Translations under genes and position numbers: made by a program
Notes under the pieces: model-generated
What the model was told of the DNA's origin: nothing
Seen by the model: only the letters and a program-made list of their open reading frames with translations
Database searches by the model: none
DNA from: an uncultured Gammaproteobacteria bacterium
GTDB lineage: Bacteria; Cyanobacteriota; Vampirovibrionia; Gastranaerophilales; CAZEDP01
Direction: 5' to 3'
DNA: 42,406 nt
NCBI GenBank assembly: GCA_964511035.1
Contig: CAZEDP010000001.1
Coordinates: forward strand, 1-42,406
Part shown: positions 14,937 to 42,406 of the stretch, one piece after another
Position numbering within the stretch: position 1 is the stretch's first letter
How the letters are laid out: each line of letters begins with the position of its first letter

Positions 14937-14948
14937 TAAATCCTCTTA

Positions 14949-23000: not shown

Positions 23001-23456
23001 ATAAATTAAATTAGTAATCTTTCTTTTAAAATTCCCATCTTCCTTAACAAACCAAGCTCCGTCATAATAACCGGCATAATCTAGATTGTAGTAAAAATAT
23101 GCCCCCACACACATATTAGTATTATCACCCAGTTTTTTCGGTATATTCCTGATTTTTGAATATGTTTTTTCAAGATTAGAAAAGCTTTTTAATTTTTTTA
23201 AATCATTTGTACTGTTGATTGAACTCACATCAAGTACAAAACTCCCCAAAAGATTTACGTTTTTCTCAACCTGTTTAAGTTCATTGTAAATTTCCTTGGA
23301 AATATTAGCAGCATTTACAGTGAGCATTTTTTTCGCCATGGTTGAAATGATTCGTTCACTGGAAAAAATGCTGATATACCCGATTATCAAAACCGTAAAA
23401 AAGAGTGTAGCCGATATACTAAGAATTATGCTTAATTTTAAAGAATTTGAATTCAT
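20088..23456 (-). CDS. Hybrid sensor histidine kinase: TM, Cache-like periplasmic domain, TM, PAS, HisKA, HATPase_c, REC, REC, HPt
   Basis: Two hydrophobic segments bracket an extracytoplasmic region of about 270 aa. H-box [15 protein letters not shown]; N-box [10 protein letters not shown]; G-boxes DTGIGI and GGTGLGL. Two receivers ([10 protein letters not shown]...[10 protein letters not shown]; [11 protein letters not shown]...[10 protein letters not shown]). C-terminal HPt ([14 protein letters not shown]). Confidence 0.9.
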
Positions 23457-23494
23457 CTATTATACGATTCTTTCATTTTAACGGCAGACCAAAC

Positions 23495-23896
23495 TTAGGA
23501 TTCTTCTATGAGACCAAATTCAATCAATTTTGCTACCAGACTGTCTTTATCAATGGGTTTGACCAGATACCCCTCACACTGTTCTCTAAAAGCGTGGCGA
23601 ATATTTTCAGAATCACCTAAAGCTGTTGTCATTATTATTTTTACACTGTCACTGCCGTAAATATTAAATTCTTCTTCAATTTCCCTGATGGTTTTAAGAA
23701 CGTCATGTCCATTACACTCCGGCATCATAATATCTAGAGTTATTACATCATATGGAGAATTGTCTTCAATAGAAGCCTTAAATGCTTCAATAGCCTCCTG
23801 CCCGTTTACTGCAATATGACACTCGCCATACTTAGACAAATATGCCTGCAAAATCCTTCTGCAAGTGAAATCATCGTCAACAATTAAACTTCTCAT
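23495..23896 (-). CDS. CheY-like single-domain response regulator
   Basis: MRSLIVDDD...VITLDIMMPECNGHDV...TTALGD...YLVKP. Confidence 0.9.
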   Translation of the reverse strand: MRSLIVDDDFTCRRILQAYLSKYGECHIAVNGQEAIEAFKASIEDNSPYDVITLDIMMPECNGHDVLKTIREIEEEFNIYGSDSVKIIMTTALGDSENIRHAFREQCEGYLVKPIDKDSLVAKLIEFGLIEES

Positions 23897-23974
23897 CTTG
23901 TGTATCTCCTGTTCAGCTTATTATTACTTCAATATTATACTTATTCAAATATATCGTCCTTACAATTGTGTTAA

Positions 23975-26560
23975 TCAGGTGTTAAATAAGTTTTCAACAT
24001 CCAAGACCAGACAGGGCTCATCATCTTCCAAAATTGAAATTCCCGCAACAAAATCCAACTTTATAAAATCTTCTTCCTGAGGTTTTACAAGCACTTTTTT
24101 GTTTTCAATAATCTTTTTAGCAGGTAGAGCCTTAATCTCACCGTTAAATTCCAATAAAATAACTATTTCATTTTCTGATTCATAATTTTCTGTTCCCAAA
24201 AAATCAGAAATGTAAACGGTAGGGATTATTTCATCATTTAAAACAAATTGCGGATATCTGTTTAGTTCTTTGCTCCAATTGTCGTCAGTCGGATTTAAAA
24301 CCTGTTTAATATTTACTAAAGGGATTATATAAATAGTACCCTGAATGTCAGTGACAGCACCGTTGATGACTGCATTATCCGTGGGTATTATCATGGTAAA
24401 TGTTGATCCTTCATTAAGCTTTGACTTAATACTTATCTCTCCGTTCATTTTTTGTATTTCAGTTTTGACTACATCCATCCCAACCCCTCTGCCTGAAACA
24501 CTGTCAACCGACTCAGCTGTGGTAAAACCGGGGTTAAAAATAAACTCAATAATTTCATTTTCACTATAATTTCTATCGGTAGTAACCAAATTCTTCTGAA
24601 CTGCTTTTTTGTAAATTTTATCTGTATCCAGCCCCTTTCCGTCATCAACAACATTAATAATAATCTTCCCGTTTTTGCTGTATGCAGAAACTTTGATATT
24701 TCCTGTCGGTGATTTTCCAAGGTTTTTGCGAACCTCAGAATTTTCGATTCCGTGCGCTACAGCATTTCTGACAATATGAATCAACGGATCCAAAATTTTA
24801 TCGGCAACCTGCCTGTCTATTTCAATATCCTCACCGGACAGCGAGAAATTAATCTCCTTTTTAAGTTCAAACATTGTATCTTCAGCAATACGTTTGATTT
24901 TCTGGAAAGCAGACTCAAGCGAAACTGTTTTTATGGTTATGGCTATATCTTTCAGAATCTTTAATTTCCTCGTCAGAGCCTTTATATTATTATAAAGAAC
25001 GCCCGACGAACTGCATTGAAATGCTTCTTTATCAATACATGCTTGAATTTTAATAATCTCGTCGATATTTTCAGAGAGTTTTTCAATTTTATTTTTTGGA
25101 ATCCTAACCGCATCAAATGAATAACGTTCTTTAGAATTTTCATTAACATTAATAGAGTCTGACTCTTCTTTGAAATTCAAATTTTCTTTCATTAATTTAT
25201 TATAGTTATCTCTTTGAACTTCAAGTTTTTTTTCTGTTTCATTATTATTGGGTTGCATCTCATCAGCCGATGCTTGAATATCTTCCAATAGTTTAAGATG
25301 TTCATTAATCATATTAAGGAAAGATTGGTTCCTGTTTAAAGAAATATCACTGCATATTTGCCGTATGCAATCAGTTGAACTTAAAATAACGTCTATCAAA
25401 GTATTATTAATTTTAATAGCACCTTTCATACAGCCATCAAGGACAGTTTCGGTTTTATGTGCTATTTCCTGAATTAAATTTTGATTAACGAAACCTGCTA
25501 AACCTTTAATTGTATGGAAAGCCCTGAAAATGGCATTTATTACTTTGAGATTGGTTGCATCCCTTTCAATATGCTGAACGTTTGCTTCTATTGCCTCAAT
25601 ATGCTCTTTTGTTTCCGAAATAAAATCCTGCCAAAACTCATTATCAATGGTAAATTCCTTTTTGAAATTCGAAACTTTCATACTCTCAAGATGATTAAGT
25701 ATTTTGTTTAAGAAACTTTCATCTTTAATCAGGCTAAAATCATCACATATACCTCTTATAAAAGATACTGAGTTATAGATGAGCGCAATAATTTTATCGT
25801 TTATTGCAATTTCATCTCGCCGGCATGCTTCTAAAAGAACTTCCAGCTCGTAAGAAATTCTTTTTATCAGCATCTGCCCAGAATAACCGGCAATTCCGTT
25901 TATAGTATGGACTGCCCTATATACGCTGTTCAATATCTTTTTATCAGGATTTTTGCTCAGCTGTTCAGTTTTTTGCTCAATAACCTTTAAATCTTCTTCA
26001 ATTTCAGGCTTAAATTCCAGCAACAATTCACAGTTAATTTTATACGTTAAATATTCTTTATCTTTAACTATTACCTCGTCTTCACAGCCGTCCTGATAAA
26101 TAACATCGTCAATTTCCTTAAGATGATTAAAGATTCCGTTAGTAAATTCATCATTTGCATTCAAAGAAATATCGTTACAGATTTTTCTTATTAGCCTCGT
26201 AGAAGTTTTGATTAAAGAAATTGTTTCTTTATCAGTTGGAACAACAGATTCATTGCAGGATACCATTAAAGTTTCAGTCTGATGAGCAATTTTTTGAATG
26301 GTATATTGACCGACCAAACTGGAAGAACCTTTTATATTGTGATAATAACGAAACATTTCATTAAAAATATCAAGTATAGCTTGTTCATTACCTATATTAT
26401 CTTCCAGTAATTTTATATTCTCATCAATTAAATCCAGATTTTCCAATGCCTTAGAAACAAATTCAGGTAAAAACTCCTCAAAATCAGGAGTTTTGCAGTT
26501 TGCAAAATCCGCTTCCTCCAGAATTTTCTTAAGCAATTCATCTACATTAATATTATCCAA
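23975..26560 (-). CDS. cheA: CheA-type histidine kinase with three N-terminal HPt (P1) domains and a C-terminal CheW-like domain
   Basis: Three HPt motifs (FRYYHNIKGSSSLVG; YRAVHTINGIAGYSG; FRAFHTIKGLAGFVN). CheA catalytic core DPLIHIVRNAVAHGIE...DDGKGLD...PGFTTAESVDSVSGRGVGMDVVKTEIQKMNGEISIKSKLNEGSTFTMIIP. A CheW-like tail follows. Confidence 0.9.
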   Translation of the reverse strand: MDNINVDELLKKILEEADFANCKTPDFEEFLPEFVSKALENLDLIDENIKLLEDNIGNEQAILDIFNEMFRYYHNIKGSSSLVGQYTIQKIAHQTETLMVSCNESVVPTDKETISLIKTSTRLIRKICNDISLNANDEFTNGIFNHLKEIDDVIYQDGCEDEVIVKDKEYLTYKINCELLLEFKPEIEEDLKVIEQKTEQLSKNPDKKILNSVYRAVHTINGIAGYSGQMLIKRISYELEVLLEACRRDEIAINDKIIALIYNSVSFIRGICDDFSLIKDESFLNKILNHLESMKVSNFKKEFTIDNEFWQDFISETKEHIEAIEANVQHIERDATNLKVINAIFRAFHTIKGLAGFVNQNLIQEIAHKTETVLDGCMKGAIKINNTLIDVILSSTDCIRQICSDISLNRNQSFLNMINEHLKLLEDIQASADEMQPNNNETEKKLEVQRDNYNKLMKENLNFKEESDSINVNENSKERYSFDAVRIPKNKIEKLSENIDEIIKIQACIDKEAFQCSSSGVLYNNIKALTRKLKILKDIAITIKTVSLESAFQKIKRIAEDTMFELKKEINFSLSGEDIEIDRQVADKILDPLIHIVRNAVAHGIENSEVRKNLGKSPTGNIKVSAYSKNGKIIINVVDDGKGLDTDKIYKKAVQKNLVTTDRNYSENEIIEFIFNPGFTTAESVDSVSGRGVGMDVVKTEIQKMNGEISIKSKLNEGSTFTMIIPTDNAVINGAVTDIQGTIYIIPLVNIKQVLNPTDDNWSKELNRYPQFVLNDEIIPTVYISDFLGTENYESENEIVILLEFNGEIKALPAKKIIENKKVLVKPQEEDFIKLDFVAGISILEDDEPCLVLDVENLFNT

Positions 26561-26584
26561 AGTGATATTCTCCCAAGATTATGT

Positions 26585-26953
26585 TTACTTTAAAATGTTG
26601 CGTACTTTAATGACCAGATCCTGTGATGTAAAGGGTTTTAACAGATAATGTCTTACTCCTGCTTCAATAGCTTTTCTGATATATTCTTCCTGTCCGATTG
26701 CAGTAATCATAAGAAGTTTTTGATTGGGGTTATGTTTAAAAATTTGTTTGGCGGTTTCTATACCGTCAATCCCCGGCATTGTTATATCACAGGTAATAAG
26801 GTTGTAGTTCATCTTTGACGCCATCTCCAAACCTATTATTCCGCTGGGAGCATAATCAACATGCTTTATGTCCAAGATGGATAACGTTTTTTTTATTACT
26901 GAAAACAAAATTTCCTGATCATCAATAACTAAAACCCTGAATTTTTCAAACAT
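26585..26953 (-). CDS. CheY-like single-domain response regulator
   Basis: FRVLVIDDQ...LITCDITMPGIDGIE...ITA....YLLKPF. Confidence 0.9.
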   Translation of the reverse strand: MFEKFRVLVIDDQEILFSVIKKTLSILDIKHVDYAPSGIIGLEMASKMNYNLITCDITMPGIDGIETAKQIFKHNPNQKLLMITAIGQEEYIRKAIEAGVRHYLLKPFTSQDLVIKVRNILK

Positions 26954-29430: not shown

Positions 29431-30291
29431 ATGATATATGATGAGTTGATAGCTAATAAAAATACTTTAAAATTTAGTGTTTTAATTCCAATTTATTTTA
29501 AAGAAAAACCTGAATATTTTGAACAAGCTATAAATAGTATTTTAAATCAAAGCCTAAAACCTGATGAAATTTTAATATGTAAAGATGGGCCTTTAACAAA
29601 TGAACTTAACAAGTTAATTACAAGTTTTGTTAATAAATACCCAAGATTGTTTAAAATAATCGAACTTGATAAGAATAGAGGTGCAGGAGCCGCAAGGAAG
29701 CTTTCAGTAGAGAAAACATCTCATGATATTATTGCAATTATGGATTCAGATGATATTGCAAAGCCTGAAAGATTTGAAAAGCAAATAAAATTTTTACAAG
29801 AAAATCCTGATATTGATGCCGTTGGTTCATATGTTTCAGAATTTGAACATTGTCCCCAAAAACCATATTCAATAAGAAAAGTTCCGCTGACTCATAATGA
29901 TATAGTCAAATACTCGAAATGGCGATGCCCTATGAACCAACAGACAGTAATAACAAAAAAAGAAAATATATTAAAGGCAGGAAATTATTCCGATGAATAT
30001 ATGCTTATGGAAGATTATCATTTGTGGGTAAGAATGATACTATCAGGTGCCAAGTTTGCGAATATTCCCGAATGCCTTGTCGATATGAGAGCGGGACCTA
30101 CCATGATTAAAAGAAGGGGGCTTAGAGTTTTTAAGTATGAAATGAAATTTTTTCAGGAATTATATTTATTAAATTTTATTTCCAAAATTGAACTTTGCAG
30201 GAATTTGTTCTGTAAATTTTGGCTAAGAATATTGCCTCCAAATTTTAGAATTCTTGCCTATGATTTGTTTTTACGTAAAAGGATAAAATAA
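29431..30291 (+). CDS. Family 2 glycosyltransferase
   Basis: FSVLIPIYFKEKPEYFEQAINSILNQS...ILICKDG...MDSDDIA...EDYHLW is a GT-A fold with the D.D motif. Confidence 0.85.
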   Translation: MIYDELIANKNTLKFSVLIPIYFKEKPEYFEQAINSILNQSLKPDEILICKDGPLTNELNKLITSFVNKYPRLFKIIELDKNRGAGAARKLSVEKTSHDIIAIMDSDDIAKPERFEKQIKFLQENPDIDAVGSYVSEFEHCPQKPYSIRKVPLTHNDIVKYSKWRCPMNQQTVITKKENILKAGNYSDEYMLMEDYHLWVRMILSGAKFANIPECLVDMRAGPTMIKRRGLRVFKYEMKFFQELYLLNFISKIELCRNLFCKFWLRILPPNFRILAYDLFLRKRIK

Positions 30292-30321: not shown

Positions 30322-31200
30322 CTATCTTTTTATCCAACTATCAGGAATAACATCGATTGTGTTTCGTTTCAATTTAAATGAATTTTTAAACCAAATTTCA
30401 GGGGCAATAATTATTTTGTTAGGATTTTCATTAAGCCAAGCACCCCACCAAGCATATGTCGAATTTGATATAATAGCATGCTTACAATGCTTTATGAGAC
30501 AAATACCTGCAGCGTATCCGTTTTTCATATCATAACTGTTGCATATAGTAAGCGGGTATTTTATTTTAATATTGTCAAAACACCAATCACTATTATCTGT
30601 AAACAAGTAAAAATGGGGATTTTCAATTTTCTCTGCAATTTCGTTTATACTTCTTAAATAATAGTCTCTTTCAAGAGCCCAACCTAACTTTACATAATCA
30701 GCTCCTCTTCTTACTGAAACTGCAACTGAATTTTCCGACATAATATTTTGTAGAATTTGGTTGTTTTTTGCTTCCATTTCATATTTTAAACTGAAATCAT
30801 ACAATAATTCTTTTCTGTAATTTAGAAAATATTTCTCGTTTACAAAATAACCATCATAATAAACATTATCTCTATCAATATTTTGTAGGTCAGGCTGATA
30901 TTGATTTCTGACTTTTTCATATGTTCTGTTTGTAGGGAATAATTTAATACCGCTAATTTTATAAATATTTGTATATAATTCAGCTAATTTGTTCTCGCTA
31001 AGGCATTTTTTTATTTCTTCGTTAGTAGCAAATTTCAAATCTGCATTAAATGAACCTAATGCGTATTTGACCCAGTGTCTTTCCTCCTTCTTTCTTGCAA
31101 AATAGGATAAATCAAATAAGACCTGATCTCCTAATGCTTTTGAAAAAGCATATTGAAACATTTGATTACCCAGTCCGCCCATTAATTTTATTATTATCAA
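30322..31200 (-). CDS. Family 11 glycosyltransferase (alpha-1,2-fucosyltransferase-like)
   Basis: MIIIKLMGGLGNQMFQYAF (GT11 motif I), VAVSVRRGADYV (HVRRGDY-like), and ISNSTYAWWGAWLN. Confidence 0.85.
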   Translation of the reverse strand: MIIIKLMGGLGNQMFQYAFSKALGDQVLFDLSYFARKKEERHWVKYALGSFNADLKFATNEEIKKCLSENKLAELYTNIYKISGIKLFPTNRTYEKVRNQYQPDLQNIDRDNVYYDGYFVNEKYFLNYRKELLYDFSLKYEMEAKNNQILQNIMSENSVAVSVRRGADYVKLGWALERDYYLRSINEIAEKIENPHFYLFTDNSDWCFDNIKIKYPLTICNSYDMKNGYAAGICLIKHCKHAIISNSTYAWWGAWLNENPNKIIIAPEIWFKNSFKLKRNTIDVIPDSWIKR

Positions 31201-31259: not shown

Positions 31260-32768
31260 ATGTTAACATCTACAAATAAGGTTAAATCTATGAAAACTGT
31301 TAATTTATTAAAAAGTGTTTTAATTCTAACATTAATTTTAATATTTTTTTATGACTTTTCTTTTATATTTGGACCAACAATTTTAAGCTGTTACTTTTTG
31401 ACATTAATTCCCTTGTATTTGCTTTTTATATTGAAAGCTCCTGAAAAATTTATTAACAATATTGCTTTTCTCTATAAAAAGACCCCGGCAAAATATTTTG
31501 TTTGGACTATAGCAGGTTTTTTAATTACTTCCCTGATTGCAATAATTTCAGGGAAATACTCGGTTTCTAACGCAATTTATCGTATTCCGCGTGAATTATT
31601 TTTTATAATACCCTTAACTTATTTTTTTCCGATATATTTCATTCCAAGATATTTATCTTATAAATTGTTAATTAAATTTTCTGTCATTGTTACGTATGTA
31701 ATACTTTTTCTAGGTATAGTTGACCTTATTGGTATCTTTTTTGATATCGAACATATAAGAACGGTTCTTGGTTCTTTAGGTAATTTCAAGCTTCTTGGAG
31801 CTATAAGAAGTAATATCAAAGACCCAATGCATGTATTAACGAGTTTTGAGGTAATTTCAGGATTTCCGAGAATTCAAAGTGTTTTCCACGAACCCGGTGC
31901 TTACTCAAAATTTATTCTGATAATGCTTCCTATAATCTACAAATTCTCAACAACCTCTTACAAAATATTCAGTAATCCATATTTAAACTTACTTGCTAAA
32001 AGAACATTTATATTATTTGCTTGGGCTGGACTTTTGTTTGCGCAGTCTCCAATTTACTTTATTTTTGCGGTAATGTTCACTGCTATGTATTTTTATAAAT
32101 CATTAATTTCTTCAATCAAAAAAAATATTCACACATATTCAATGTTATTTCTTTTGTTTGGTGTTATTACGAGTTTAATATTAATTAATATAAATTTCTC
32201 CCAAACCTTTTTAATGAGAGTTTGGCGAGTTTATGAAAGTCTGGGAAGTTTCGACAAATTTATCTTTTATGAACCGTCGCTTGCTACCCGAATCATTTCA
32301 TTTATTAATTGCATTGATGTATTTCTTAAGAATCCAATTGTTGGTGTTGGCTTTAGTAATCAAGTTTATGTTATGTATGAACAACTTCTTGCCTCACCCG
32401 TTCCGCTTACAGATGAATTAATGCGAGGTATGTACGCAGACTCTGATATTACAAGAGTATCGTTCTCCACATTTTATTATTTGCTTGCGGGCTCCGGAAT
32501 AGTTGGTACTTCAATATATTATTATTTTGTATATAAAAATATTAAAATTTTAAACAAAATTAAAACATATTACATCGGAATAGAAAAAGATTTTTTGTAT
32601 GCACTTGAAAATAGTTTATACATAATAATTTTCCTTGGATTTTATAGTTTTAATTTTTTAAATGGATTATCTTGGTTTTTCTTTGGCTTGATCACTTCAT
32701 TTGTTTTAGGGTATCTGAAAAATAAAAATGATATAAAAATTGAGGATAGAGATGTTTCAAAACAATAA
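31260..32768 (+). CDS. Polytopic membrane protein, O-antigen/EPS polymerase (Wzy)-like
   Basis: Ten or more hydrophobic segments with a larger loop region, in a Wzx/GT context. There is no strong sequence motif, which is typical for Wzy. Alternative start at ATG 31290 (aagg upstream). Confidence 0.7.
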   Translation: MLTSTNKVKSMKTVNLLKSVLILTLILIFFYDFSFIFGPTILSCYFLTLIPLYLLFILKAPEKFINNIAFLYKKTPAKYFVWTIAGFLITSLIAIISGKYSVSNAIYRIPRELFFIIPLTYFFPIYFIPRYLSYKLLIKFSVIVTYVILFLGIVDLIGIFFDIEHIRTVLGSLGNFKLLGAIRSNIKDPMHVLTSFEVISGFPRIQSVFHEPGAYSKFILIMLPIIYKFSTTSYKIFSNPYLNLLAKRTFILFAWAGLLFAQSPIYFIFAVMFTAMYFYKSLISSIKKNIHTYSMLFLLFGVITSLILININFSQTFLMRVWRVYESLGSFDKFIFYEPSLATRIISFINCIDVFLKNPIVGVGFSNQVYVMYEQLLASPVPLTDELMRGMYADSDITRVSFSTFYYLLAGSGIVGTSIYYYFVYKNIKILNKIKTYYIGIEKDFLYALENSLYIIIFLGFYSFNFLNGLSWFFFGLITSFVLGYLKNKNDIKIEDRDVSKQ

Positions 32769-33642
32769 TGGCAGAATAGTTATTTTTGCCCATTGGGACA
32801 AGGATAATTTAATTGATGATTATGTAATATATTATCTTAATGCATTAAAAAATATTGCAAATATCATTATCTTTTCATCTGACTGCGATATTAAAGATAC
32901 TGAGCTTAAAAAATTAGAAAATATTACACCTTATATTATTTCAAAATGTCACGGTGAATATGATTTTGGTTCATATAAAAGAGGCTATGTTTATGCTCAA
33001 AGGCATAATTTATTAAAAAATGCTGAAGAATTGCTAATATGCAATGATAGTTGCATCGGACCTTTTCATCCGCTTGAAGATATTTTTGAAGAAATGAAAA
33101 ATAATAGTTGTGATTTTTGGGGATTAAATTATAACAAATATATTACCTCACATCTTCAAAGCTTTTTTCTCGTATTTAAAAAAAATGTATTTAATTCAAA
33201 GCAATTTGAAGAGTTTCTGTTAAACGTAAGGATCGAAAGAAATAAAAATATTGTTGTAAAAAAATATGAATTGAATTTTACTGAATATTTGCTGCAAGCA
33301 GGCTTTAATTATTCTTATTGCTTTGATAAGCCAATACCTCATAGACTATATTCAACAATATTCAGCGAAATGGGAAATACAAAATATCCATTCATAAAAA
33401 AAAGTATGTTGAATAATTATTTAAATAAATCAGTCTCATTTTTTGTTAATAAAATGAGGAAAAATATTTATTGTAACTATCCCTTTGAAATTATTGAAAA
33501 ATACTATGAAAGAATTAATAGAGGAAATATTCAGTCAAAATTTGTAAACTTTATTAAACTTTGGGTTTCTTACTATATTATATTTCCAAGAACAAGAGAT
33601 AGGTTATACTTTATAAATAAATGGTATTACTTTAATAAATAA
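32752..33642 (+). CDS. Rhamnan synthesis protein F (RgpF)-like glycosyltransferase
   Basis: IVIFAHWDKDNLIDDYVIYYLNAL...GEYDFGSYK...ICNDSCIGPFHPLEDIFEEM....CDFWGL........HLQSFFLVFKK matches the RgpF family pattern. ATG at 32752 is preceded by gagga. Confidence 0.8.
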   Translation: MFQNNNGRIVIFAHWDKDNLIDDYVIYYLNALKNIANIIIFSSDCDIKDTELKKLENITPYIISKCHGEYDFGSYKRGYVYAQRHNLLKNAEELLICNDSCIGPFHPLEDIFEEMKNNSCDFWGLNYNKYITSHLQSFFLVFKKNVFNSKQFEEFLLNVRIERNKNIVVKKYELNFTEYLLQAGFNYSYCFDKPIPHRLYSTIFSEMGNTKYPFIKKSMLNNYLNKSVSFFVNKMRKNIYCNYPFEIIEKYYERINRGNIQSKFVNFIKLWVSYYIIFPRTRDRLYFINKWYYFNK

Positions 33643-33724: not shown

Positions 33725-34927
33725 ATGAAAAAAGTTAGATTTGTAATCGGTGGTTTATTACGATTTTTAATTGGAAATTTATTGTCTTTATTTATTAAAA
33801 GAGATAAAAGTTATTGGGTGTTTAACTGTTCTTCAATTGTTACGTTACCACAAATGTTTACGCACAATACAAAATATTTGTTTCTTTTTCTGTCTACTAA
33901 TAAACAATATGGTATTACGCCGGTTTGGATTTCAAAAAATAAACAAATCATAAGCAGGTTAAAAGAATGCGGTTACAAAGCATATTATAAGTATAGTTTT
34001 CAAAATTTGTATTACTGTCTTAAATCTAAATATTATTTTGTTGATAGTGCTGCAGATGATATTTCAAAATATTTATCAGTTGGTGCTGTAATAATAAATT
34101 TTTGGCACGGAGTATCTTTAAAAAAAATTGGTCTTGATGCTGATACAAAATGTATTTCTAGAAACCTATCTGGTTTTCAGAAATCTTTTTATAACGCATT
34201 TAAAATAAAAGAAAATTACTTTGTTTCAAATAGTGATTATGATTCAAAGATTTTCAAGTCAGCTTACAATGTTGATAACAGTTCAATTCTAAAATTAGGT
34301 TCACCGCGTTTAGATATCCTTTTTAACAATATAAAAGATTCTGATCTTTTTATGGAAGAAAATGTTGAAAATATAATCAAACTAAAGCAAGAAAGCAGAA
34401 AATTACTGATTTATGTTCCAACATTTAGAGATACGGGTAAAGATATTTCAGGATGGTTACAATCAAATCATTTAAAAGAGGTATTAGCCAAAAATAATAT
34501 TACATTAGTTTGCAAACTACATATGGCTGACAATAACAAGTTAACTACGGACAATTGCAAAGAATTTTATAAAATGGCAAATAATGCAGACATTTATGCT
34601 GTTTTAAAATATACAGATGCTTTAATTACAGATTATTCGTCAGTATATTTCGACTATTTACTACTTGATAAACCGATTATATTTTATCCGTTTGACTTAA
34701 ATGAATATATTTCACAAGACAGAGAATTATATGTAAATTATAACGACTATACACCCGGAATCAAAGCTTATAATGAAAAAGACTTAATTGATGCAATTCA
34801 ACGAACTATCAACGGAGAGGATAACTATATGCAAGCTCGTTCTGATTTAAGAAATGAACTGTTTGATCATCAGGACGGCAAAAATTGCCAAAGGATAGTA
34901 GAATTTGTTAAAAATTTAGACAAATGA
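33725..34927 (+). CDS. CDP-glycerol glycerophosphotransferase family (TagB/TagF-like) transferase
   Basis: [14 protein letters not shown], and [30 protein letters not shown] are signature blocks of the Glyphos_transf family. Confidence 0.85.
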
Positions 34928-36231
34928 ATTTTATAATGTTTTCTTTATCAACAATAAAAACTTTATCAAACGACAAAAAAAGATTTTTTAAAAATTTTGC
35001 CTCTTTGTCTATTATGCAGATAGCAGGCTATATATTGCCTCTTTTAACTTTACCCTATCTTGCAAGAGTTTTGGATGCAGAGAAATTTGGTCTGGTATTT
35101 TTTGCTCAGGCATTTATTCAATATTTTATGATATTGACTGATTTCGGGTTTAACCTTTCAGCGACAAAAGAAATTTCAGTTAATAGAGAAAATCCTGACA
35201 AAGTTGCAGAAATATTCAATTCAGTAATGCTAATCAGATTTGTTTTATTATTAGTGAGCTTATTGATATTGGTTATTGTTGTATTTGGCTTTAGCAAATT
35301 CCGAAACGATTGGGCAGTATATTTTTTAACATTCGGAATGGCTGTAGGAAATGTATTGTTCCCAATATGGTTTTTTCAGGGAATGGAGCGAATGAAATTC
35401 GTTACTATATTAAATATACTTTCAAGAGTTATTTTCACCGTTTTAATCTTTGTATTTATAAAAAAATCTTCGGATTTTATATATGTTCCTTTACTGAATT
35501 CTATCGGCTTTTTAGCTTCAGGCATTTTATCTCTTTGGATTGTTTATAAGTATTTTGATGTCAAATTTTTCGTGCCTGATTTGAAAACAATTATTGTCCA
35601 CCTGAAAGACAGCACGCAGTTTTTTCTCTCAAGGGTTTCCGTGTCTTTATACACTTCAAGCAATGCTTTTGTTTTAGGTTTATTTACAAGTAATCAGGCG
35701 GTCGGGTATTATGTAGCGGCAGAAAAATTATATCAGGCATTACAGTACATATATTTCCCTATAAACAGCTCGCTCTATCCTTATATGTCAAAAGAAAAAA
35801 ATATACGATTCTTCAAAAAGCTTTTTGGGGGCGCATTCATATTAAACATTGTTCTATCATTGTTAATATTTATTTTCGCAAAAGAAATAATTCATATTTT
35901 TTACGGTGCAGATTTGGTCAAAAGCACAGGTGTACTGCAAATATTCTCAATGGCTGCACTTTTATTAATTCCTTCTATCTTCCTCGGGTACCCTTTTTTA
36001 GCAGCACTTGGTCAATCCAAATACGCCAATAACAGCGTTATAATAGGTTCTGTTATTCATATATTGGGGTTAGGAACGCTTATCTTATTCTCAGCTCTAA
36101 ATATATATACTGTTGCTATTATGGTAATATTTACAGAAGGAACAGTTTTGGCAATAAGAATATACGGTATAAAAAGACACAAGTTGTGGAACATTTCAAA
36201 TAAATTAGAAGAAAGTAAACCGGTATCATAA
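34924..36231 (+). CDS. wzx: Wzx-type polysaccharide flippase (MOP superfamily)
   Basis: About 12-14 TM segments. N-terminal [42 protein letters not shown] is typical of Wzx/RfbX. ATGA overlap with the upstream gene. Confidence 0.8.
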
Positions 36232-36243
36232 AGGAAAAATAGA

Positions 36244-37545
36244 ATGACTAAAAAAGTATACGTCGGAATGAGTGCTGATTTGATCCACCCGGGACATTTG
36301 AATATTTTGCGAGAAGCTCAAAAACTGGGTGATGTTACTGTCGGGTTACTCACAGACAGTGCTATTGCAAGCTACAAAAGACTTCCGTATTTAACATATG
36401 AACAAAGAAAAGAAATCGTTGAAAATATCAAAGGCGTAAAAGAAGTAGTACCCCAGGAAACTCTTGACTATGTACCAAATTTAAGAAAGCTCAAACCCGA
36501 TTTTGTCGTTCATGGTGACGACTGGAAAACAGGAATTCAAAGGGAAGTCAGGCAAAGAGTAGTTGATGTTATGAGCGAATGGGGTGGCAAAGTTGTTGAT
36601 ATAGAATACACCAAAGGAATTTCATCAACTGCTTTGCATAAAGCATTGAAAGAAATTGGCACAACTCCTCAAATAAGAATGAAAAGACTGAGGAGGCTAA
36701 TTGAATCTAAGCCTCTTGTAAAAATTATGGAAGCCCACAACGGATTAACAGGGTTGATTGTTGAAAATATTAACATTAAAGAAAACGGCTGTATCAATGA
36801 ATTTGACGGCATGTGGCTGAGCAGTTTAACTGAATCAACAGCAAAAGGGAAACCCGACATAGAATTTGTTGATTTAACTTCAAGGATAACAACAATAAAC
36901 GACATTTCAGAAATCACAACCAAACCGATTATTTATGACGGAGATACAGGCGGAATTCCCGAACACTTTGTATTCACAGTCAAAACTCTTGAAAGACTTG
37001 GAGTCTCAGCTATTATCATTGAAGACAAAATCGGGCTTAAGAAAAATTCCCTTTTTGGAACTGAAGTTGAACAAACACAAGACTGTATTGAAGATTTTGC
37101 CAGAAAAATCCAAATGGGGAAACAAGCCAGAGTTACGGATGATTTTATGATTATTGCCCGCATCGAAAGTCTTATATTAAATAAAGGACTTGATGATGCA
37201 ATAACAAGAGCTAGGGCATATATAGAAGCAGGAGCCGATGGAATAATGATTCACAGCAAGCAAAAGGATTTTAAAGAAGTGTACGAGTTCTGTAATTTAT
37301 ACAAAAAACTTGATTACAGGGTTCCGTTAATTGCCATACCCACCACTTATAATCAGGTTTACGAAAAAGATTTAATAGATGCAGGTGTTAATGTGGTAAT
37401 TTATGCTAATCATTTGCTCAGAGCTGCCTACCCTGCCATGTTAAAAGCTGCACAAACAATTCTTAAGAATGAAAGATCTTTTGAAACAAACGAAATATGT
37501 ATGCCCATTAGAGAAATTTTGACTCTTATACCGGGAGGTTGCTAA
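36244..37545 (+). CDS. pepM: Bifunctional cytidylyltransferase (TagD-like, H.GH) / phosphoenolpyruvate phosphomutase
   Basis: N-terminal domain: [26 protein letters not shown]...VVHGDDW...GISST. C-terminal domain: [12 protein letters not shown]...[19 protein letters not shown]...IIYDGDTGG...[19 protein letters not shown]...IARIES, which are conserved PEP mutase blocks. Confidence 0.9.
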
Positions 37546-38673
37546 TTGCTTAACTGTGCTGATTTCTATAATGCGTTAACTGCTCATGGTATTGATTTTT
37601 TTTGCGGTGTGCCGGATTCATTATTAAAAGATTTTTGTGCATACATAACAGATAATGCACCTCAAGGAAAACATATCATAACAGCAAATGAAGGTAACGC
37701 CATTGCTCTTGCAGCAGGAGTTTATCTTTCAACCGGAAAGCCTGCTCTTGTATATATGCAGAATTCGGGGCAGGGAAATGCCGTCAACCCGCTTGTCTCA
37801 CTTGCAGATGAAGATGTTTATCAAATCCCTTTACTTATGCTGATCGGATGGAGAGGAGAACCAGGTATAAAAGACGAGCCTCAGCATGCCAAACAGGGAA
37901 AAATTACTCTAAAATTGTTGGAAACTTTAAATATTCCTTACTCAATACTTCCTGATAATAAATCAGATATGGAAAACTGCCTTAACAATGCCATTTCTGA
38001 AATGCGAATTTCCAACGCTCCTTACGCATTAATTATCAAGAAAGGGACTTTTGAAACATATAAATTACAAAACAACACTTTTAATAATTATGAAATGACC
38101 CGAGAAGACGCAATTAAAATTATAGTTGACAATCTGGGCAGCACTGATGTAATTATCTCAACCACAGGAATGACCTCAAGAGAACTTTACGAATACAGGG
38201 AAGCGTTAAATCAAACAGGTTCATCTGATTTTTTAACGGTAGGTTCGATGGGGCATTCTTCTGCCATTGCATTGGGGATGGCTTTGAATAAGCCAAGTAA
38301 ACAAGTATTTTGTCTTGATGGAGACGGAGCGGCAATAATGCACCTTGGTGCTTTTACAACAATCGGAACAAATGCACCAACGAATTTCAAACATATCTTA
38401 ATAAATAACGGTGCCCATGATTCTGTCGGCGGTCAACCAACTTGTGGATTTAAGATTGATTTTTGCAAAATTGCGATAGCCAGTAATTATGAAGATGCAT
38501 TTTCAGTAGATAATGCACATGCCTTAAAAGATAAAATTATCACTTTAAAGGAAATTGAAGGTCCTGCATTACTTGAAATCAAAGTTAAAAAAGGTGCAAG
38601 AAAGGATTTAGGAAGACCTAAAAGCACTCCAATTGAAAACAAAAATAAATTCATGGAATTTTTAAGACAATGA
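37546..38673 (+). CDS. ppd: Phosphonopyruvate decarboxylase (ThDP-dependent)
   Basis: FFCGVPDSLLKDFCAYI, MQNSGQGNAVNPL.SL, and the ThDP motif LDGDGAAIMHLGAFTTIG......HILINNGAHDSVGGQ. TTG start lies directly after the pepM stop, with gggagg 7 nt upstream. Confidence 0.9.
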   Translation: MLNCADFYNALTAHGIDFFCGVPDSLLKDFCAYITDNAPQGKHIITANEGNAIALAAGVYLSTGKPALVYMQNSGQGNAVNPLVSLADEDVYQIPLLMLIGWRGEPGIKDEPQHAKQGKITLKLLETLNIPYSILPDNKSDMENCLNNAISEMRISNAPYALIIKKGTFETYKLQNNTFNNYEMTREDAIKIIVDNLGSTDVIISTTGMTSRELYEYREALNQTGSSDFLTVGSMGHSSAIALGMALNKPSKQVFCLDGDGAAIMHLGAFTTIGTNAPTNFKHILINNGAHDSVGGQPTCGFKIDFCKIAIASNYEDAFSVDNAHALKDKIITLKEIEGPALLEIKVKKGARKDLGRPKSTPIENKNKFMEFLRQ

Positions 38674-39794
38674 AACAAAAAGAATTCATCGGATTCAACA
38701 GCATAGACTTCTTGGAAAAAATTTTATCCAAAAATGAACCACAAAATATTTTTTTAGTTTCAGCGAAAAACTCTTTTATTTCTAGTGGAGCAAAGAAAGT
38801 CATATTCAATAAGCTGCAACACATCAACACATATCATTTTTTTGATTTTTCGCCGAATATAAAACTGGAAGAACTTGAAAAAGCCATTCAGATATTCCAA
38901 AAAGGAAACTATGACTTAATAATCGCTGTCGGTGGCGGCAGTGTAATTGATATGGCTAAATTAATCAATATTTTTTCTTGCCAAAGAGAACCTATTGAAA
39001 AGTATTTAAACAGTAATGCAAAAATATCGATAAAGCCGTTGCCTTTAATAGCTATACCAACTACATCAGGTTCCGGTAGTGAAGCTACCCATTTCGCTGT
39101 TTTGTATAAGGATAAAACCAAGTTTTCAGTTGCCCATCAATATATTTTGCCTGATATAGCCATTGTAGACCCACAATTTACAATGAATCTTCCTTCTAAT
39201 ATTACCGCCGAAACCGGAGCAGACGCTTTATGTCAGGCAATAGAATCCTATTGGAGTATTTACTCAACTGATGAGTCTTTAAAATATGCTAAAGAAGCAA
39301 TTCAACTTATCAGAAAATCACTGTATCAAGCTGTAACCAATCCTAACAAAGAAGCGAGAGAAAATATGGCATTAGCTTCGCACCTTGCCGGCAAAGCCAT
39401 TAATATCACCAAAACCACTGCCCCACATGCTATATCCTATCCATTTACTTCCTATTACGGAATTAACCATGGTCACGCAGTTGCTTTAACCCTTGGTGCA
39501 ATATTAGTTTATAATTACGATGTTACCGAGAATGATATCCAAGACACACGGGGTACTGTATTTGTTAAAAATAGAATTTCAGACATTTGCGATATGTTTG
39601 AATGTAAAACAGTTCATGAATGCCAACATGCCATCAACAATCTGCTAAATAATATTGGCATTGAATTAAGCTTAAATAAGTTAAATGTCAACAATATTGA
39701 AATAATTGTTAATAATGTAAACACAGAACGCTTAATCAATAACCCAAGAATAATTACTAAGGAAAAATTAAGAAAAATGCTGTTAAACTTATAA
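38670..39794 (+). CDS. Iron-containing (group III) alcohol dehydrogenase, probable phosphonoacetaldehyde reductase
   Basis: AVGGGSVIDMAKL, IAIPTTSGSGSE, and the metal-binding region APHAISYPF....INHGHAVAL. ATGA overlap with ppd. The function is inferred from position after PepM and Ppd. Confidence 0.8.
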   Translation: MKQKEFIGFNSIDFLEKILSKNEPQNIFLVSAKNSFISSGAKKVIFNKLQHINTYHFFDFSPNIKLEELEKAIQIFQKGNYDLIIAVGGGSVIDMAKLINIFSCQREPIEKYLNSNAKISIKPLPLIAIPTTSGSGSEATHFAVLYKDKTKFSVAHQYILPDIAIVDPQFTMNLPSNITAETGADALCQAIESYWSIYSTDESLKYAKEAIQLIRKSLYQAVTNPNKEARENMALASHLAGKAINITKTTAPHAISYPFTSYYGINHGHAVALTLGAILVYNYDVTENDIQDTRGTVFVKNRISDICDMFECKTVHECQHAINNLLNNIGIELSLNKLNVNNIEIIVNNVNTERLINNPRIITKEKLRKMLLNL

Positions 39795-39810: not shown

Positions 39811-40383
39811 ATGCCCTTTAATTTTACAAATTTAAACATACCTGACGTCATATTGGTAACTCCAAAGGTTTTTGCTGATGAGCGCGGGTTTTTTATGGAA
39901 ACATATAAATCAGAAGATTTTATAACGGCAGGAATAACAACTCAGTTTCTTCAGGACAATCATTCCAAATCAACAAAGGGGACTCTAAGAGGACTTCATT
40001 ACCAACTTAATCCCAAAGCACAGGCAAAGCTTGTTCGATGTGCATCCGGTGAGATTTTTGACGTTGCAGTTGATATAAGAAAAGGTTCTCCGACATTTGG
40101 AAAATGGGCAGGGGCTAAATTATCCGATGAAAACAAACAAATGCTTTTCATCCCGGAGGGATTCGCTCATGGTTTCTTAGTTTTGAGCGAAACTGCCGAG
40201 GTTCTTTACAAAGCCGGAGAAGTCTATTCCCCTGAATTTGATGCAGGGATACTATGGAATGACCCCGATATCGGAATCGATTGGGGAATTGGAAGTCCAA
40301 TTCTTTCTGAAAAGGACAAAAATCATCCGTTGTTAAAAAATGCCAGAAATAATTTCGTTTATTCCAAGTTTTTGATATATTAG
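39811..40383 (+). CDS. rfbC: dTDP-4-dehydrorhamnose 3,5-epimerase
   Basis: F.DERGFFME......F.Q.NHS.S.KGTLRGLHYQ......KLVRC..GEIFDVAVDIRKGSPTFGKW....LS.EN..MLFIPEGFAHGF. Confidence 0.92.
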   Translation: MPFNFTNLNIPDVILVTPKVFADERGFFMETYKSEDFITAGITTQFLQDNHSKSTKGTLRGLHYQLNPKAQAKLVRCASGEIFDVAVDIRKGSPTFGKWAGAKLSDENKQMLFIPEGFAHGFLVLSETAEVLYKAGEVYSPEFDAGILWNDPDIGIDWGIGSPILSEKDKNHPLLKNARNNFVYSKFLIY

Positions 40384-40413: not shown

Positions 40414-41391
40414 ATGAAGTTACTCGTTACAGGCGGATGCGGATTTATAGGCAGTTGTTTTATCAGGCATATGTTTAATAAATATCCTGACAGTAAAATC
40501 ATTAATCTTGACCTTTTAACCTATGCAGGCAACCCCGAAAATTTGAGAGATTTGGAAAATAATCCGCATTATACATTTGTGCAAGGTGATATCTGCAATA
40601 AAAGACTGGTTAACCAGTTAATGAGCGATGTTGACTGCTGTCTGAATTTTGCTGCCGAGAGCCATGTTGACAGAAGTATTCAGGGACCGGAAATTTTCGT
40701 TCAAACTAATGTTCTGGGAACGCAAACACTTCTTCAGGCAGCAAAAGATGCAAATATACAGAGATTCGTTCAGATTTCCACCGATGAAGTATATGGAACA
40801 CTAGGAGCAAAAGGGTATTTTACCGAAGAAACTCCGCTTTCGCCAAATAGTCCTTATTCAGCAAGCAAAGCCTCGGCGGATATGTTTGCCAGAGCTTATT
40901 TTGAAACATATAAAATGCCTGTCTTGATAACAAGATGTTCAAATAATTACGGACCTTATCAATACCCCGAAAAATTAATTCCTTTGTTTATAAATAATCT
41001 GCTTGCCGACAAATGCGTACCGGTATACGGCGACGGTATGAACGTCAGGGATTGGCTTTATGTTTATGATCACTGTAGCGCAATAGACACTGTTCTTCAC
41101 AAAGGCAGAGAAGGTCAGGTTTACAACATCGGCGGAAATAACGAAAAAACAAATAATGAAATTACAAAAATCCTTCTGAAAGAACTCAATAAGCCGCAAA
41201 AGCTAATCAGCTTTGTTGAAGACAGGCCGGGTCATGACCGCAGATATGCGATTGACAGTTCAAAAATCCAACGGGAACTTGGTTGGAAGCCGTCGGTTAC
41301 ATTTGAGGAAGGCATTAAACAGACAATCCAATGGTATATCAGCAATACCCAGTGGATAAAAAACATTGAATCAAGAAAGCTGTCAGTATAG
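40414..41391 (+). CDS. rfbB: dTDP-glucose 4,6-dehydratase
   Basis: MKLLVTGGCGFIGS, LTYAGN, AAESHVDRSI, ISTDEVYG, PYSASKA, NNYGPYQYPEKLIP, RPGHDRRYAID. Confidence 0.95.
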   Translation: MKLLVTGGCGFIGSCFIRHMFNKYPDSKIINLDLLTYAGNPENLRDLENNPHYTFVQGDICNKRLVNQLMSDVDCCLNFAAESHVDRSIQGPEIFVQTNVLGTQTLLQAAKDANIQRFVQISTDEVYGTLGAKGYFTEETPLSPNSPYSASKASADMFARAYFETYKMPVLITRCSNNYGPYQYPEKLIPLFINNLLADKCVPVYGDGMNVRDWLYVYDHCSAIDTVLHKGREGQVYNIGGNNEKTNNEITKILLKELNKPQKLISFVEDRPGHDRRYAIDSSKIQRELGWKPSVTFEEGIKQTIQWYISNTQWIKNIESRKLSV

Positions 41392-41404: not shown

Positions 41405-42247
41405 ATGAAGATAATGGTAACGGGAGCAAACGGAATGTTGGGGCAGGATTTAGTCCCGATATCAGAAAAGGAAGACTTTGAAGTAATTCCTACGGACTTG
41501 CATAATCTGGATATTACCGATGAAGTAGCAGTTAAACAATTCATTAATGAATCAATGCCGGATTTTATTATCCATGCCGCGGCTTACACAGATGTTGACG
41601 GTGCTGAGAGTAATCAAGAAAAGGCTTTTTTGATAAATGAAAAAGGAACTGAAAACCTTGCGAAGTATTCCGCGTCTTCCGATATCCCAATACTTTATAT
41701 AAGTACGGATTACGTTTTTGACGGTACAAAGAACGAACCTTATTTGCCGAGTGACAAAACAAATCCCATAAATGTTTACGGACTGTCAAAATTAAAAGGC
41801 GAACAAGCTCTGCAAAAACACTGCACGAAATTTTATATAACAAGGACAAGTTGGCTTTACGGGCATCACGGAAAGAATTTTGTTGAAACAATGATTAATC
41901 TTGCACAAAAGAATCCTGAGCTTAAAGTTGTTTCAGACCAGATCGGATGTCCGACATGGACAGTAGAGCTGTCAAATGCCTTAGTTAAAATAATTAAAGG
42001 GAATTCTCCTTACGGAATATACCATACGTGCGGTTCCGGATATACAAGTTGGCACGGTTTTTCTTCAGAAATTATGAGACTTATGAATTTAAACGTGAAA
42101 GTTACTCCGGTAAATACAGAACACTTCCCGAGACCTGCTAAAAGACCTTTATATTCCGTTATGGACAATAACGGCATTTGCCCCGAGTGGAAACAATCAC
42201 TTAAGCAATATATTAATCTCAGAACATTAACAGGAGCGTGTAAATGA
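41405..42247 (+). CDS. rfbD: dTDP-4-dehydrorhamnose reductase
   Basis: [48 protein letters not shown] prefer the ATG at 41405 over the longest ORF, which would overlap rfbB. Confidence 0.9.
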
Positions 42248-42406
42248 AAGGAATCATACTTGCAGGAGGCAGCGGCACAAGGCTTTACCCTGTAACTAAA
42301 GTTATATCAAAACAATTACTGCCGATTTATGACAAACCTATGATATATTATCCTTTGTCAGTACTGATGCTCGCCGGTATCAGAGAAATTCTTGTTATCT
42401 CCACAC
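42244..42406 (+). CDS. rfbA: Glucose-1-phosphate thymidylyltransferase (3'-truncated by the window end)
   Basis: [53 protein letters not shown] is the canonical RmlA N-terminus. ATGA overlap with rfbD. Confidence 0.9.

Follow-up and report, generated by a model that had tools for sequence, protein, structure and literature searches.

A widespread hydroxyethylphosphonate cassette beside a TagF-family gene in a gammaproteobacterial surface-glycan locus: a candidate for the phosphonyl transfer step

Cell-surface decoration is estimated to be the purpose of about half of the phosphonate pathways of microbes (PMC8942020). The enzyme by which an activated phosphonate reaches a glycan is not defined in any paper of the literature searched, and Rice et al. 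(2019) mention only LicD-like phosphotransferases and glycosyltransferases for the transfer (PMC6697681). A concrete case is offered by contig CAZEDP010000001.1 (assembly GCA_964511035.1) of an uncultured gammaproteobacterium, of which positions 1 to 42,406, hereafter the window, were analysed. A three-gene cassette predicted to make 2-hydroxyethylphosphonate (HEP) and to activate it as its cytidylyl derivative (CMP-HEP) lies there behind the genes for a Wzx flippase and for a TagF-family enzyme, named here TagF1. On balance, we favour reading the locus as a Wzx/Wzy-dependent O-antigen or capsule cluster of a low-G+C bacterium, which carries a widespread HEP cassette and in which TagF1 would be the likeliest transferase. 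The genes on which this reading turns are the following.

33725..34927, + strand: TagF-family CDP-alcohol phosphotransferase (TagF1), candidate HEP-phosphonyl transferase; PF04464 (Glyphos_transf), E 3.6e-67
34924..36231, + strand: Wzx flippase; PF01943, E 2.4e-70
36244..36660, + strand: Fom1-type cytidylyltransferase domain, residues 1-139 of a fusion protein; PF01467, E 1.2e-16
36682..37545, + strand: phosphoenolpyruvate (PEP) phosphomutase domain (PepM), residues 147-433 of the same fusion; TIGR02320
37546..38673, + strand: phosphonopyruvate decarboxylase (Ppd); TIGR03297
38670..39794, + strand: group III metal-dependent alcohol dehydrogenase (ADH), predicted phosphonoacetaldehyde reductase of the PhpC/FomC type; PF00465 and PF25137

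All open reading frames that a first-pass annotation, made from the letters alone, had drawn between 33725 and 39794 were recovered at the same positions. Its three coupled genes for fusion, Ppd and iron-type ADH are borne out by Pfam and NCBIfam matches and by the gene junctions, and the Pfam matches listed above bear out the Wzx and the CDP-glycerol glycerophosphotransferase-family enzyme upstream. Read directly from the sequence, the tagF1/wzx and ppd/ADH junctions are ATGA overlaps, the gap from wzx to the fusion gene measures 12 nt, and ppd starts with TTG directly after the TAA stop of the fusion gene, with GGAGG 8 nt upstream.

The amino-terminal domain of the fusion had first been described as a TagD-like H.GH domain. 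The motif is indeed present, with HPGH at residue 15 and TKGISS at residue 123, as in HxGH-class cytidylyltransferases, and the PF01467 match spans residues 10-131; the label, however, undersells the domain, which is far closer to the cytidylyltransferase (CyTase) of Fom1 (PDB 5x3d; E 2.1e-64, 96/134 residues or 72% identical), as the same annotation had supposed, than to the TagD-like proteins of TagF-Wzx-TagD modules (only 31-39%). It matches Bacillus TagD (1coz) at E 2.7e-10, and on TIGR01518, the model for glycerol-3-phosphate cytidylyltransferases, it scores 55.9 bits against a cut-off of 165.4. According to PMC6697681, which cites Cho 2017, the Fom1 CyTase makes CMP-HEP from HEP and CTP. 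Because the domain is a close homologue of this CyTase, CMP-HEP is the expected activated donor, a well-supported prediction. The carboxy-terminal domain passes the PEP mutase model TIGR02320 (398.6 bits, cut-off 319.6), matches PDB 1m1b at E 1e-38 and carries at residue 260 the EDKxxxxxNS motif that had been proposed as a check; it stays below the cut-offs of the phosphonopyruvate hydrolase and methylisocitrate lyase models.

The second gene encodes a clear Ppd, with 512 bits on TIGR03297 (cut-off 312.5), a thiamine-diphosphate motif of the form GDG-x25-NN and scores on the sulfopyruvate decarboxylase models below their own cut-offs. The third encodes an ADH with a GGGS nucleotide motif at residue 88. 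Sulfoacetaldehyde is the sulfonate analogue of phosphonoacetaldehyde. The best solved relative of the ADH, 6jko/6jkp (E 5e-47), is a sulfoacetaldehyde reductase, and the Asp-x3-Gln, His, His metal site is kept in alignment with the ligands listed for that enzyme (PMC13576164). Four residues after the third metal ligand, HAISY of the window protein aligns with HACSF of 6jko, which places a Tyr at a position that is strictly Tyr in PhpC enzymes and Phe in sulfoacetaldehyde reductases (PMC13576164). A degradative role for the ADH was considered and rejected, since PepM and Ppd are present and phnX, phnA and phnW are absent.

What the cassette would make depends on what accompanies it. As had been noted at first reading, Pfam scans of the window open reading frames find no aminotransferase. 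A single 51.8-kb contig (L001), the source contig, encodes exactly this fusion protein; no aminotransferase is called on it up to ~5 kb beyond the window end, past the last glycan gene, although one just outside the window had been foreseen as a way in which the pathway might be redirected. HEPD/MpnS-type oxygenases, the degradative phnX and phnA and a transaminase for 2-aminoethylphosphonate (AEP) are likewise absent from the window open reading frames and from the genes called on the contig extension. With PepM, Ppd and a PhpC-like reductase in a cluster that lacks a transaminase, HEP is thus a well-supported prediction, and together with the Fom1-like domain these enzymes support the earlier proposal that the locus makes CMP-HEP as an activated donor.

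The same two-domain architecture, CyTase and PEP mutase, is found in Fom1 of the fosfomycin pathway of Streptomyces wedmorensis, which acts with Fom2 (a Ppd) and FomC (a reductase); since the window also has Ppd and group III ADH partners, the chemistry is predicted to be the same up to CMP-HEP. Unlike the fosfomycin pathway, the window locus has no Fom3-type B12 radical SAM methyltransferase, FomD or epoxidase, and its genes are part of a Wzx/Wzy glycan cluster in a Gram-negative host; we therefore predict that CMP-HEP serves as a surface-glycan donor, not as a transient antibiotic intermediate. The presence of PepM, Ppd and reductase inside a glycan assembly locus is what is expected of an HEP-type phosphonoglycan cluster.

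HEP on a polysaccharide has precedents. HEP branches make up 8.5% of surveyed neighbourhoods, and an HEP-bearing exopolysaccharide has been isolated (PMC8942020); PhpC-type neighbourhoods are listed there for Campylobacter jejuni and Helicobacter cinaedi. In the Glycomyces and Stackebrandtia exopolysaccharides, as described in papers citing Yu et al. 2014 (PMC8942020, PMC13576164), HEP is esterified to the polysaccharide and made by way of PepM, Ppd and a PhpC-type reductase, as is predicted here; unlike these exopolysaccharides of actinomycetes, the carrier in the window is probably an O-antigen or capsule repeat unit. The phosphonyl tailoring (Pnt) pathway likewise activates a phosphonate with CMP before its transfer to a cell-surface acceptor, PntC being a LicC-like enzyme that makes CMP-AEP (PMC6697681). 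It differs in its phosphonate (AEP rather than HEP), in its fold (LicC rather than HxGH-type PF01467) and in its proposed transferases, which are LicD-like, whereas a TagF-family candidate is adjacent in the window. As cytidylyltransferase-PepM fusions and HEP-bearing glycans were already described (PMC6697681, PMC8942020), the first-pass annotation overstated the novelty of the pathway as such. Its remark that the transferase step is biochemically undefined stands: in the full-text literature searched, with subscription papers outside its scope, no paper connects phosphonates with TagF or glycerophosphotransferase enzymes.

TagF1 is a genuine member of the TagF family. Its matches in the PDB are TarL (1.8e-24) and TagF (5.5e-23), and its AlphaFold model (pLDDT 91.1) finds TagF as top fold match (3l7j, E 1.6e-23, TM 0.72), followed by TarL and the Cps multienzymes. 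H128, in a WHG motif, aligns with TagF H444 and H266 with H584, and both are invariant in 40 homologues; H444 and H584 are essential in TagF, and H444N is named in PDB titles. TagF1 shares the fold and these histidines with the TagF, TarF and TagB enzymes, and its mechanism is expected to be theirs, the acceptor hydroxyl attacking the distal phosphorus and CMP leaving. It falls far below the equivalog cut-offs for TarF (132.8 versus 550 bits), TarL (96.1 versus 1000) and TarB (79.3 versus 500), and is thus a family member rather than an orthologue of any characterised teichoic acid enzyme.

The best argument for CMP-HEP as the present donor of TagF1 comes from gene order. A metagenome scan with TagF1 only returned no loci, and an alignment-based repeat returned 80. 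Relatives at 45-54% identity sit in TagF-Wzx-X modules, of the kind known as side-group modules of capsule and O-antigen loci, in which X is either a TagD-like gene of 131-139 aa or a nucleotidyltransferase-HAD fusion accompanied by a glycerol-3-phosphate dehydrogenase-like gene. The Wzx of the window is 52-61% identical to those of TagF-Wzx-TagD modules, for which reason TagF and Wzx are taken to travel together. The CyTase-PepM fusion, with Ppd and reductase behind it, takes the place of TagD in the window's version of the module, and there is, as first noted, no stand-alone glycerol-phosphate or ribitol-phosphate cytidylyltransferase; the donor is therefore predicted to contain a C-P bond and a two-carbon alcohol. 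What is seen resembles a donor swap, in which a phosphonate cassette has replaced the donor-supply gene of a glycerol-phosphate module.

TagF-like genes also recur beside the cassette elsewhere. The source contig was compared with 80 genome loci holding relatives of the fusion (55-96% identity) from bacteria, the candidate phyla radiation (CPR) and DPANN archaea. Ppd is found in 74/81 of these loci and the iron-type ADH in 65/81, mostly in the order fusion-Ppd-ADH; Ppd and ADH are fused in one protein in six, and two loci that lack the ADH (L055, L073) have a class-V aminotransferase instead. L055, which also has a LicD-like gene, comes from Parabacteroides segnis, the only named strain among the loci. 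Identity to the Fom1 CyTase is highest in the window (72%), has a median of 62% among fusions of the HEP (ADH) type and is lowest, at 51-54%, in the two of the aminotransferase type. The HEP cassette itself is thus an ordinary, widespread three-gene set: a PF01467-type domain is fused to 23.6% of PEP mutases (PMC6697681), the fusion has more than 8000 database relatives at E <= 1e-30, the best 120 of which are all at least 70% identical, and some close ones are already named 'PEP phosphomutase / 2-hydroxyethylphosphonate cytidylyltransferase'. Partner families were counted with single-domain queries, since multi-domain giants made hits bleed across families in a wider phmmer expansion, over those 53 related loci that span 12 kb or more.

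TagF-like: 21/53 loci, within 4 kb of the fusion gene in 19
LicD-like: 14/53 loci, within 4 kb of the fusion gene in 13
CDP-alcohol phosphatidyltransferase: 7/53 loci, within 4 kb of the fusion gene in 6
Any of these three families: 36/53 loci

The recurrent partners of the cassette are thus CMP-releasing phosphotransferases, with TagF-like ones the commonest. The TagF-like gene, found in many phyla, is often the immediate neighbour of the cassette; several such genes have diverged too far to be found by phmmer, and Pfam was used to confirm them.

Some of these loci are unusual in their own right. In three Clostridia metagenome-assembled genomes (MAGs), giant proteins of up to 1844-1847 aa, which combine NTP_transf_3, iron-type ADH, LicD, GT2 and Glyphos_transf domains, directly follow the fusion and Ppd genes (L072:12615-18149, L074:3255-8798, L071:2790-6524; domains Pfam-confirmed in L072 and L071, by phmmer labels only in L074) and would hold almost the whole HEP-decoration pathway in a single polypeptide. 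In CPR and DPANN loci (L038, at 13639-15063, L041, L043, L063, L006 and L027), the cassette is flanked or followed by genes of a B12-binding radical SAM cluster, confirmed with Pfam in L038 and assigned by cluster membership in the others; by analogy with Fom1-Fom2-FomC-Fom3, to which this gene set corresponds, a methylated (2-hydroxypropyl) phosphonate decoration is conceivable there. In an Akkermansia MAG (L047:6942-10602), the next gene after the cassette encodes a 791-aa protein whose amino-terminal domain is YidC-like (60KD_IMP), and a divergent Glyphos_transf gene comes after it; in a second one (L053), the same two genes directly follow the fusion gene, with Ppd and iron-type ADH not detected. 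This pairing was seen in L047 and L053 only among the loci examined.

From family membership, motifs, gene order and comparative context, which are read from the sequence, we infer the identity of the transferase and every chemical step of the following pathway. PEP mutase would convert PEP to phosphonopyruvate, which Ppd would decarboxylate to phosphonoacetaldehyde, pulling the unfavourable mutase reaction forward, and the Zn/Fe ADH would reduce the aldehyde to HEP; that HEP is made seems to us very probable. The Fom1-type domain would then join HEP and CTP into CMP-HEP, a step that we hold to be likely, if slightly less so; compared with CDP-glycerol, of which it is an analogue, CMP-HEP lacks one bridging atom and contains a C-P bond. 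At the cytoplasmic face, a TagF-family enzyme would transfer the hydroxyethylphosphonyl group to a hydroxyl of an undecaprenyl-diphosphate-linked, rhamnose-containing repeat unit and release CMP. HEP is likely to end on this glycan, and there is a reasonable, somewhat lower probability that some TagF-like enzyme puts it there; that this enzyme is specifically TagF1 (33725-34927), the likeliest candidate, has at best an even chance. Wzx would finally flip the unit and the Wzy-like protein encoded upstream would polymerise it. As to origin, the locus would derive from a TagF-Wzx-TagD glycerol-phosphate module whose donor-supply gene was replaced by the phosphonate cassette.

Several observations weigh against giving this role to TagF1. 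Its closest relatives (45-54%) all adjoin activating genes of the glycerol-phosphate type, and among 85 loci of TagF1 relatives there are TagD-like genes in 32, nucleotidyltransferase genes in 22 and PEP mutase genes in none. No residue signature separates TagF1 from its TagD-associated relatives, either in the conserved columns or in the DYSS/RxxY region; its nine deviations are conservative, and its 'DRELY' variant is also found in relatives that adjoin a TagD-like gene. Donor use is therefore not readable from the sequence, and TagF1 could be a glycerophosphotransferase of the usual kind, its donor coming from a tagD in another part of the genome. The LicD-like and CDP-alcohol phosphatidyltransferase partners counted above point away from TagF enzymes, and the 1844-aa Clostridia protein of L072, with nucleotidyltransferase, iron-type ADH, LicD, GT2 and Glyphos_transf domains (Pfam), joins the reductase directly to LicD as well as carrying a TagF domain. 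It was accordingly rejected as proof of HEP transfer by TagF, as it supports LicD at least as well, LicD directly following the reductase; no LicD is present in the cluster of the window. The ADH, for its part, scores 181.9 bits and so misses the 423.7-bit cut-off of TIGR03405 (PsrA/Phn_Fe-ADH), the one curated model that links such ADHs to phosphonates; on its top-scoring model, ErcA, it reaches 194 bits, likewise under the cut-off, so that its assignment as reductase rests on active-site residues and context.

A further difficulty lies outside the window, which ends inside the cluster, so that a second TagF-like gene, paired with a LicC-like one, was invisible at first reading. On the source contig, rmlA is followed by these genes.

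L001:16977-18260, ~0.8 kb beyond the window end: TagF2, a second, divergent Glyphos_transf-annotated gene, 427 aa
L001:18273-19025: LicC-like NTP_transferase, 250 aa; best solved relative pneumococcal LicC, E 2e-12
Part of L001:16977-19898, ~0.8-3.7 kb beyond the 3' end of the window: convergent TIGR04325 (LIC12133-family) methyltransferase
After this methyltransferase on L001: tetratricopeptide-repeat (TPR) protein

TagF2 and the LicC-like nucleotidyltransferase thus form a second candidate pair. Their conservation can be followed in the nearest genome, the uncultured gammaproteobacterial MAG L002 (CAZXPD01), whose fusion protein is 96% identical. In this sister MAG, identity is 81% for Wzx, 72-96% for the cassette, 85% for TagF2 and 87% for the LicC-like protein, and the rml genes are kept as well; the TagF1-family gene beside its wzx is only 37% identical and inverted, and the upstream glycosyltransferases differ. 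TagF1 belongs to a variable, serotype-like part of the locus, in which a TagF1-type gene beside wzx is retained. The different glycosyltransferases within 29-36 kb, next to a block kept from wzx to the LicC-like gene, suggest a recombination boundary between tagF1 and wzx. The original assignment of HEP transfer to the TagF-like enzyme of the window is thus upheld in part: coupling, recurrence beside the cassette and the TagD position speak for it, and the TagD partners of its relatives, the missing signature, the LicD and CDP-alcohol partners and the TagF2 pair speak against it.

The strongest competing explanation, which we nonetheless judge unlikely, builds on this second pair: TagF2 would attach HEP, the adjoining LicC/PntC-like enzyme would supply or co-supply CMP-HEP, and TagF1 would use CDP-glycerol made elsewhere in the genome as an ordinary glycerophosphotransferase. 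It would account for the adjacency of TagF2 and the 250-aa nucleotidyltransferase, which is conserved in the sister MAG and recurs where a 67% TagF2 homologue precedes a 250-aa NTP_transferase, for the place of the pair in the block conserved with the cassette when TagF1 is in the variable one, and for the partners of TagF1 relatives, which are TagD-like or other nucleotidyltransferase genes and never PepM. It also agrees with two Melainabacteria-type MAGs (L018 and L046) in which a TagF2 relative immediately precedes the fusion gene, and with LicC-like nucleotidyltransferases inside, or fused to, many cassettes. TagF2, however, is only loosely TagF-like: it aligns to the TagF1 family over the C-terminal, nucleotide-binding half only (hhalign probability 97%), lacks the WHG catalytic histidine and has a model that matches UDP-GlcNAc 2-epimerases as well as TarL (TM ~0.55). 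Its other relatives adjoin TagD, IspD or HAD/nucleotidyltransferase/B12 radical SAM genes in settings that have no PEP mutase, and the nearest counterpart of the LicC-like enzyme, in L051, lies beside a TagF-like gene of its own, apart from a different nucleotidyltransferase inside the cassette, which suggests a separate donor. Nor was a tagD found in those parts of the source contig that the analysis covered. It would be simplest if every TagF-like enzyme drew on the donor of the cytidylyltransferase encoded next to it; by this rule TagF1 is favoured, if modestly, for CMP-HEP, and TagF2 would use another donor.

TagF2 relatives also occur in settings of a different kind. A module recurring in L169:9001-14541, L170 and L171:3254-7255 combines a TagF2-like gene with a HAD phosphatase, an IspD/NTP_transf_3 gene and a B12 radical SAM gene; a class-V aminotransferase follows it in L169 and L170, and no PEP mutase is in reach of the three modules. 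In L168:175-10829, three PEP_mutase-family genes, one of them a CyTase-PepM fusion, lie beside a 51% TagF2 relative, with toxin-antitoxin and Fic genes interspersed; the region also encodes a HIT protein and a stand-alone TagD-like protein, and no Ppd was seen.

It is less probable still that both TagF-like enzymes use CMP-HEP, for two HEP positions or for priming followed by extension through the hydroxyl of HEP, which would yield a short poly(hydroxyethylphosphonate) in the manner of TagB and TagF in teichoic acid synthesis. The cluster has two TagF-like genes and two cytidylyltransferases for a single unusual substrate, tandem TagF-like genes directly follow the cassette in L048, L052 and L058, and the free hydroxyl of HEP should make extension chemically possible. 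No chemical precedent, however, was found in the literature searched; TagF-like genes of comparable loci usually each adjoin their own nucleotidyltransferase, suggesting different donors, and for TagF1, whose relatives lie in Wzx/Wzy repeat-unit loci, one side-group is the simplest expectation.

We give a slightly lower probability again to CMP-HEP not being meant for this polysaccharide and feeding instead into a phosphonolipid, the modification of a protein or a small phosphonate that is tailored further. Lipid-type CDP-alcohol phosphatidyltransferases do neighbour the cassette in the seven loci counted above, B12 radical SAM neighbours elsewhere recall the Fom3 step, and CMP-HEP is a transient intermediate in fosfomycin synthesis (PMC6697681, PMC8158854). 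In the window, on the other hand, the cassette lies within one co-directional, overlapping string between wzx and rmlC, genes of lipid, radical SAM, dioxygenase or peptide-ligase type are absent from the Pfam and NCBIfam matches of the window and from the genes called on the contig extension, and the TagF-like proteins are the only CMP-releasing transferase candidates nearby. Lastly, that the fusion's amino-terminal domain supplies CDP-glycerol to TagF1, with HEP activated or used otherwise, is highly improbable: the domain sits exactly in the TagD position and belongs to the TagD family PF01467, but its closeness to the HEP-cytidylylating domain of Fom1 and its low scores against TagD and TIGR01518, given above, argue otherwise.

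Whichever transferase acts, its acceptor would be assembled by the rest of the cluster, which runs in the window from 29431 to the window end and contains, beyond the genes already given, the following.

29431..30291, + strand: family 2 glycosyltransferase, first gene of the glycan cluster; PF00535, E 1.3e-25
30322..31200, - strand: family 11 glycosyltransferase (alpha-1,2-fucosyltransferase family); PF01531, E 1e-21
31260..32768, + strand: polytopic membrane protein, probable Wzy-type polymerase; strongly hydrophobic translation, phmmer matches
32740..33642, + strand: RgpF-like rhamnan-synthesis transferase; PF05045, E 9.7e-33
39811..40383, + strand: rmlC; TIGR01221, 264 bits against a cut-off of 155.8
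40414..41391, + strand: rmlB (dTDP-glucose 4,6-dehydratase type); PF16363, E 2e-89
41405..42247 (L001:15162-16004), + strand: rmlD; TIGR01214, 317.9 bits against a cut-off of 224
42244..42406, + strand: start of rmlA, cut by the window end; the whole gene is L001:16001-16963, 505.8 bits on TIGR01207

The genes are co-directional from the Wzy-like gene (31260) onward. A Pfam scan of the Wzy-like protein gave no match; with phmmer it matches proteins of 478-482 aa in L085 and L086, of which the first has a weak Wzy_C hit and the second no Pfam hit on record. Fucose may be part of the glycan, and the window contains no GDP-fucose genes. G+C content is 0.26-0.29 over 29-36 kb, as is usual in exchanged surface-glycan loci, versus 0.33-0.41 in the other parts of the window. 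Scans for promoters and terminators in the cluster gave no more hits than shuffled sequence and do not define an operon.

Outside the cluster, the window holds two RTX nonapeptide-repeat proteins (7270-8121 and 8354-9214, both - strand) beside a type I secretion set composed of a TolC-like protein (9599-11086), HlyD (11102-12382) and an ABC exporter (12426-14936), which would fit a Gram-negative host. Between an isolated Bac_transf gene (15867-16598, - strand) and a signalling block lie a DUF1537-type (SBD_N/NBD_C) sugar-acid kinase and a PdxA-like dehydrogenase (17336-19623), the stop of the kinase gene running into the start of the dehydrogenase gene. The block itself (20088-26953, - strand), of chemosensory and two-component type, encodes a 1122-aa hybrid kinase with dCache, PAS, HisKA, two receiver and Hpt domains, a CheA-like protein of 861 aa with three Hpt domains, and two single-domain receivers.

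To return to TagF1 as the candidate HEP transferase, the window adds little beyond it, as the cassette is common and the organism uncultured; its main value is one clear TagF-like example, with an evolutionary rationale, for an uncharacterised transfer step, and with its relatives it offers a concrete candidate family, the TagF-like enzymes, for phosphonyl transfer. More tentatively, and with the odds slightly against it, TagF-family enzymes may be the missing phosphonyl transferases of a large share of HEP pathways, with CMP-HEP in place of CDP-glycerol and the window as a record of donor-gene replacement. The product would then imitate a glycerol-phosphate side group with a phosphonate that resists nucleases and phosphatases and, with two TagF-like genes, could even be a short teichoic-acid-like oligo(HEP) chain. 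If this holds, many 'CDP-glycerol glycerophosphotransferase' annotations in bacteria and in DPANN/CPR genomes would be mis-assigned, and phosphatase-resistant, phosphonate-bearing O-antigens would become predictable from sequence.

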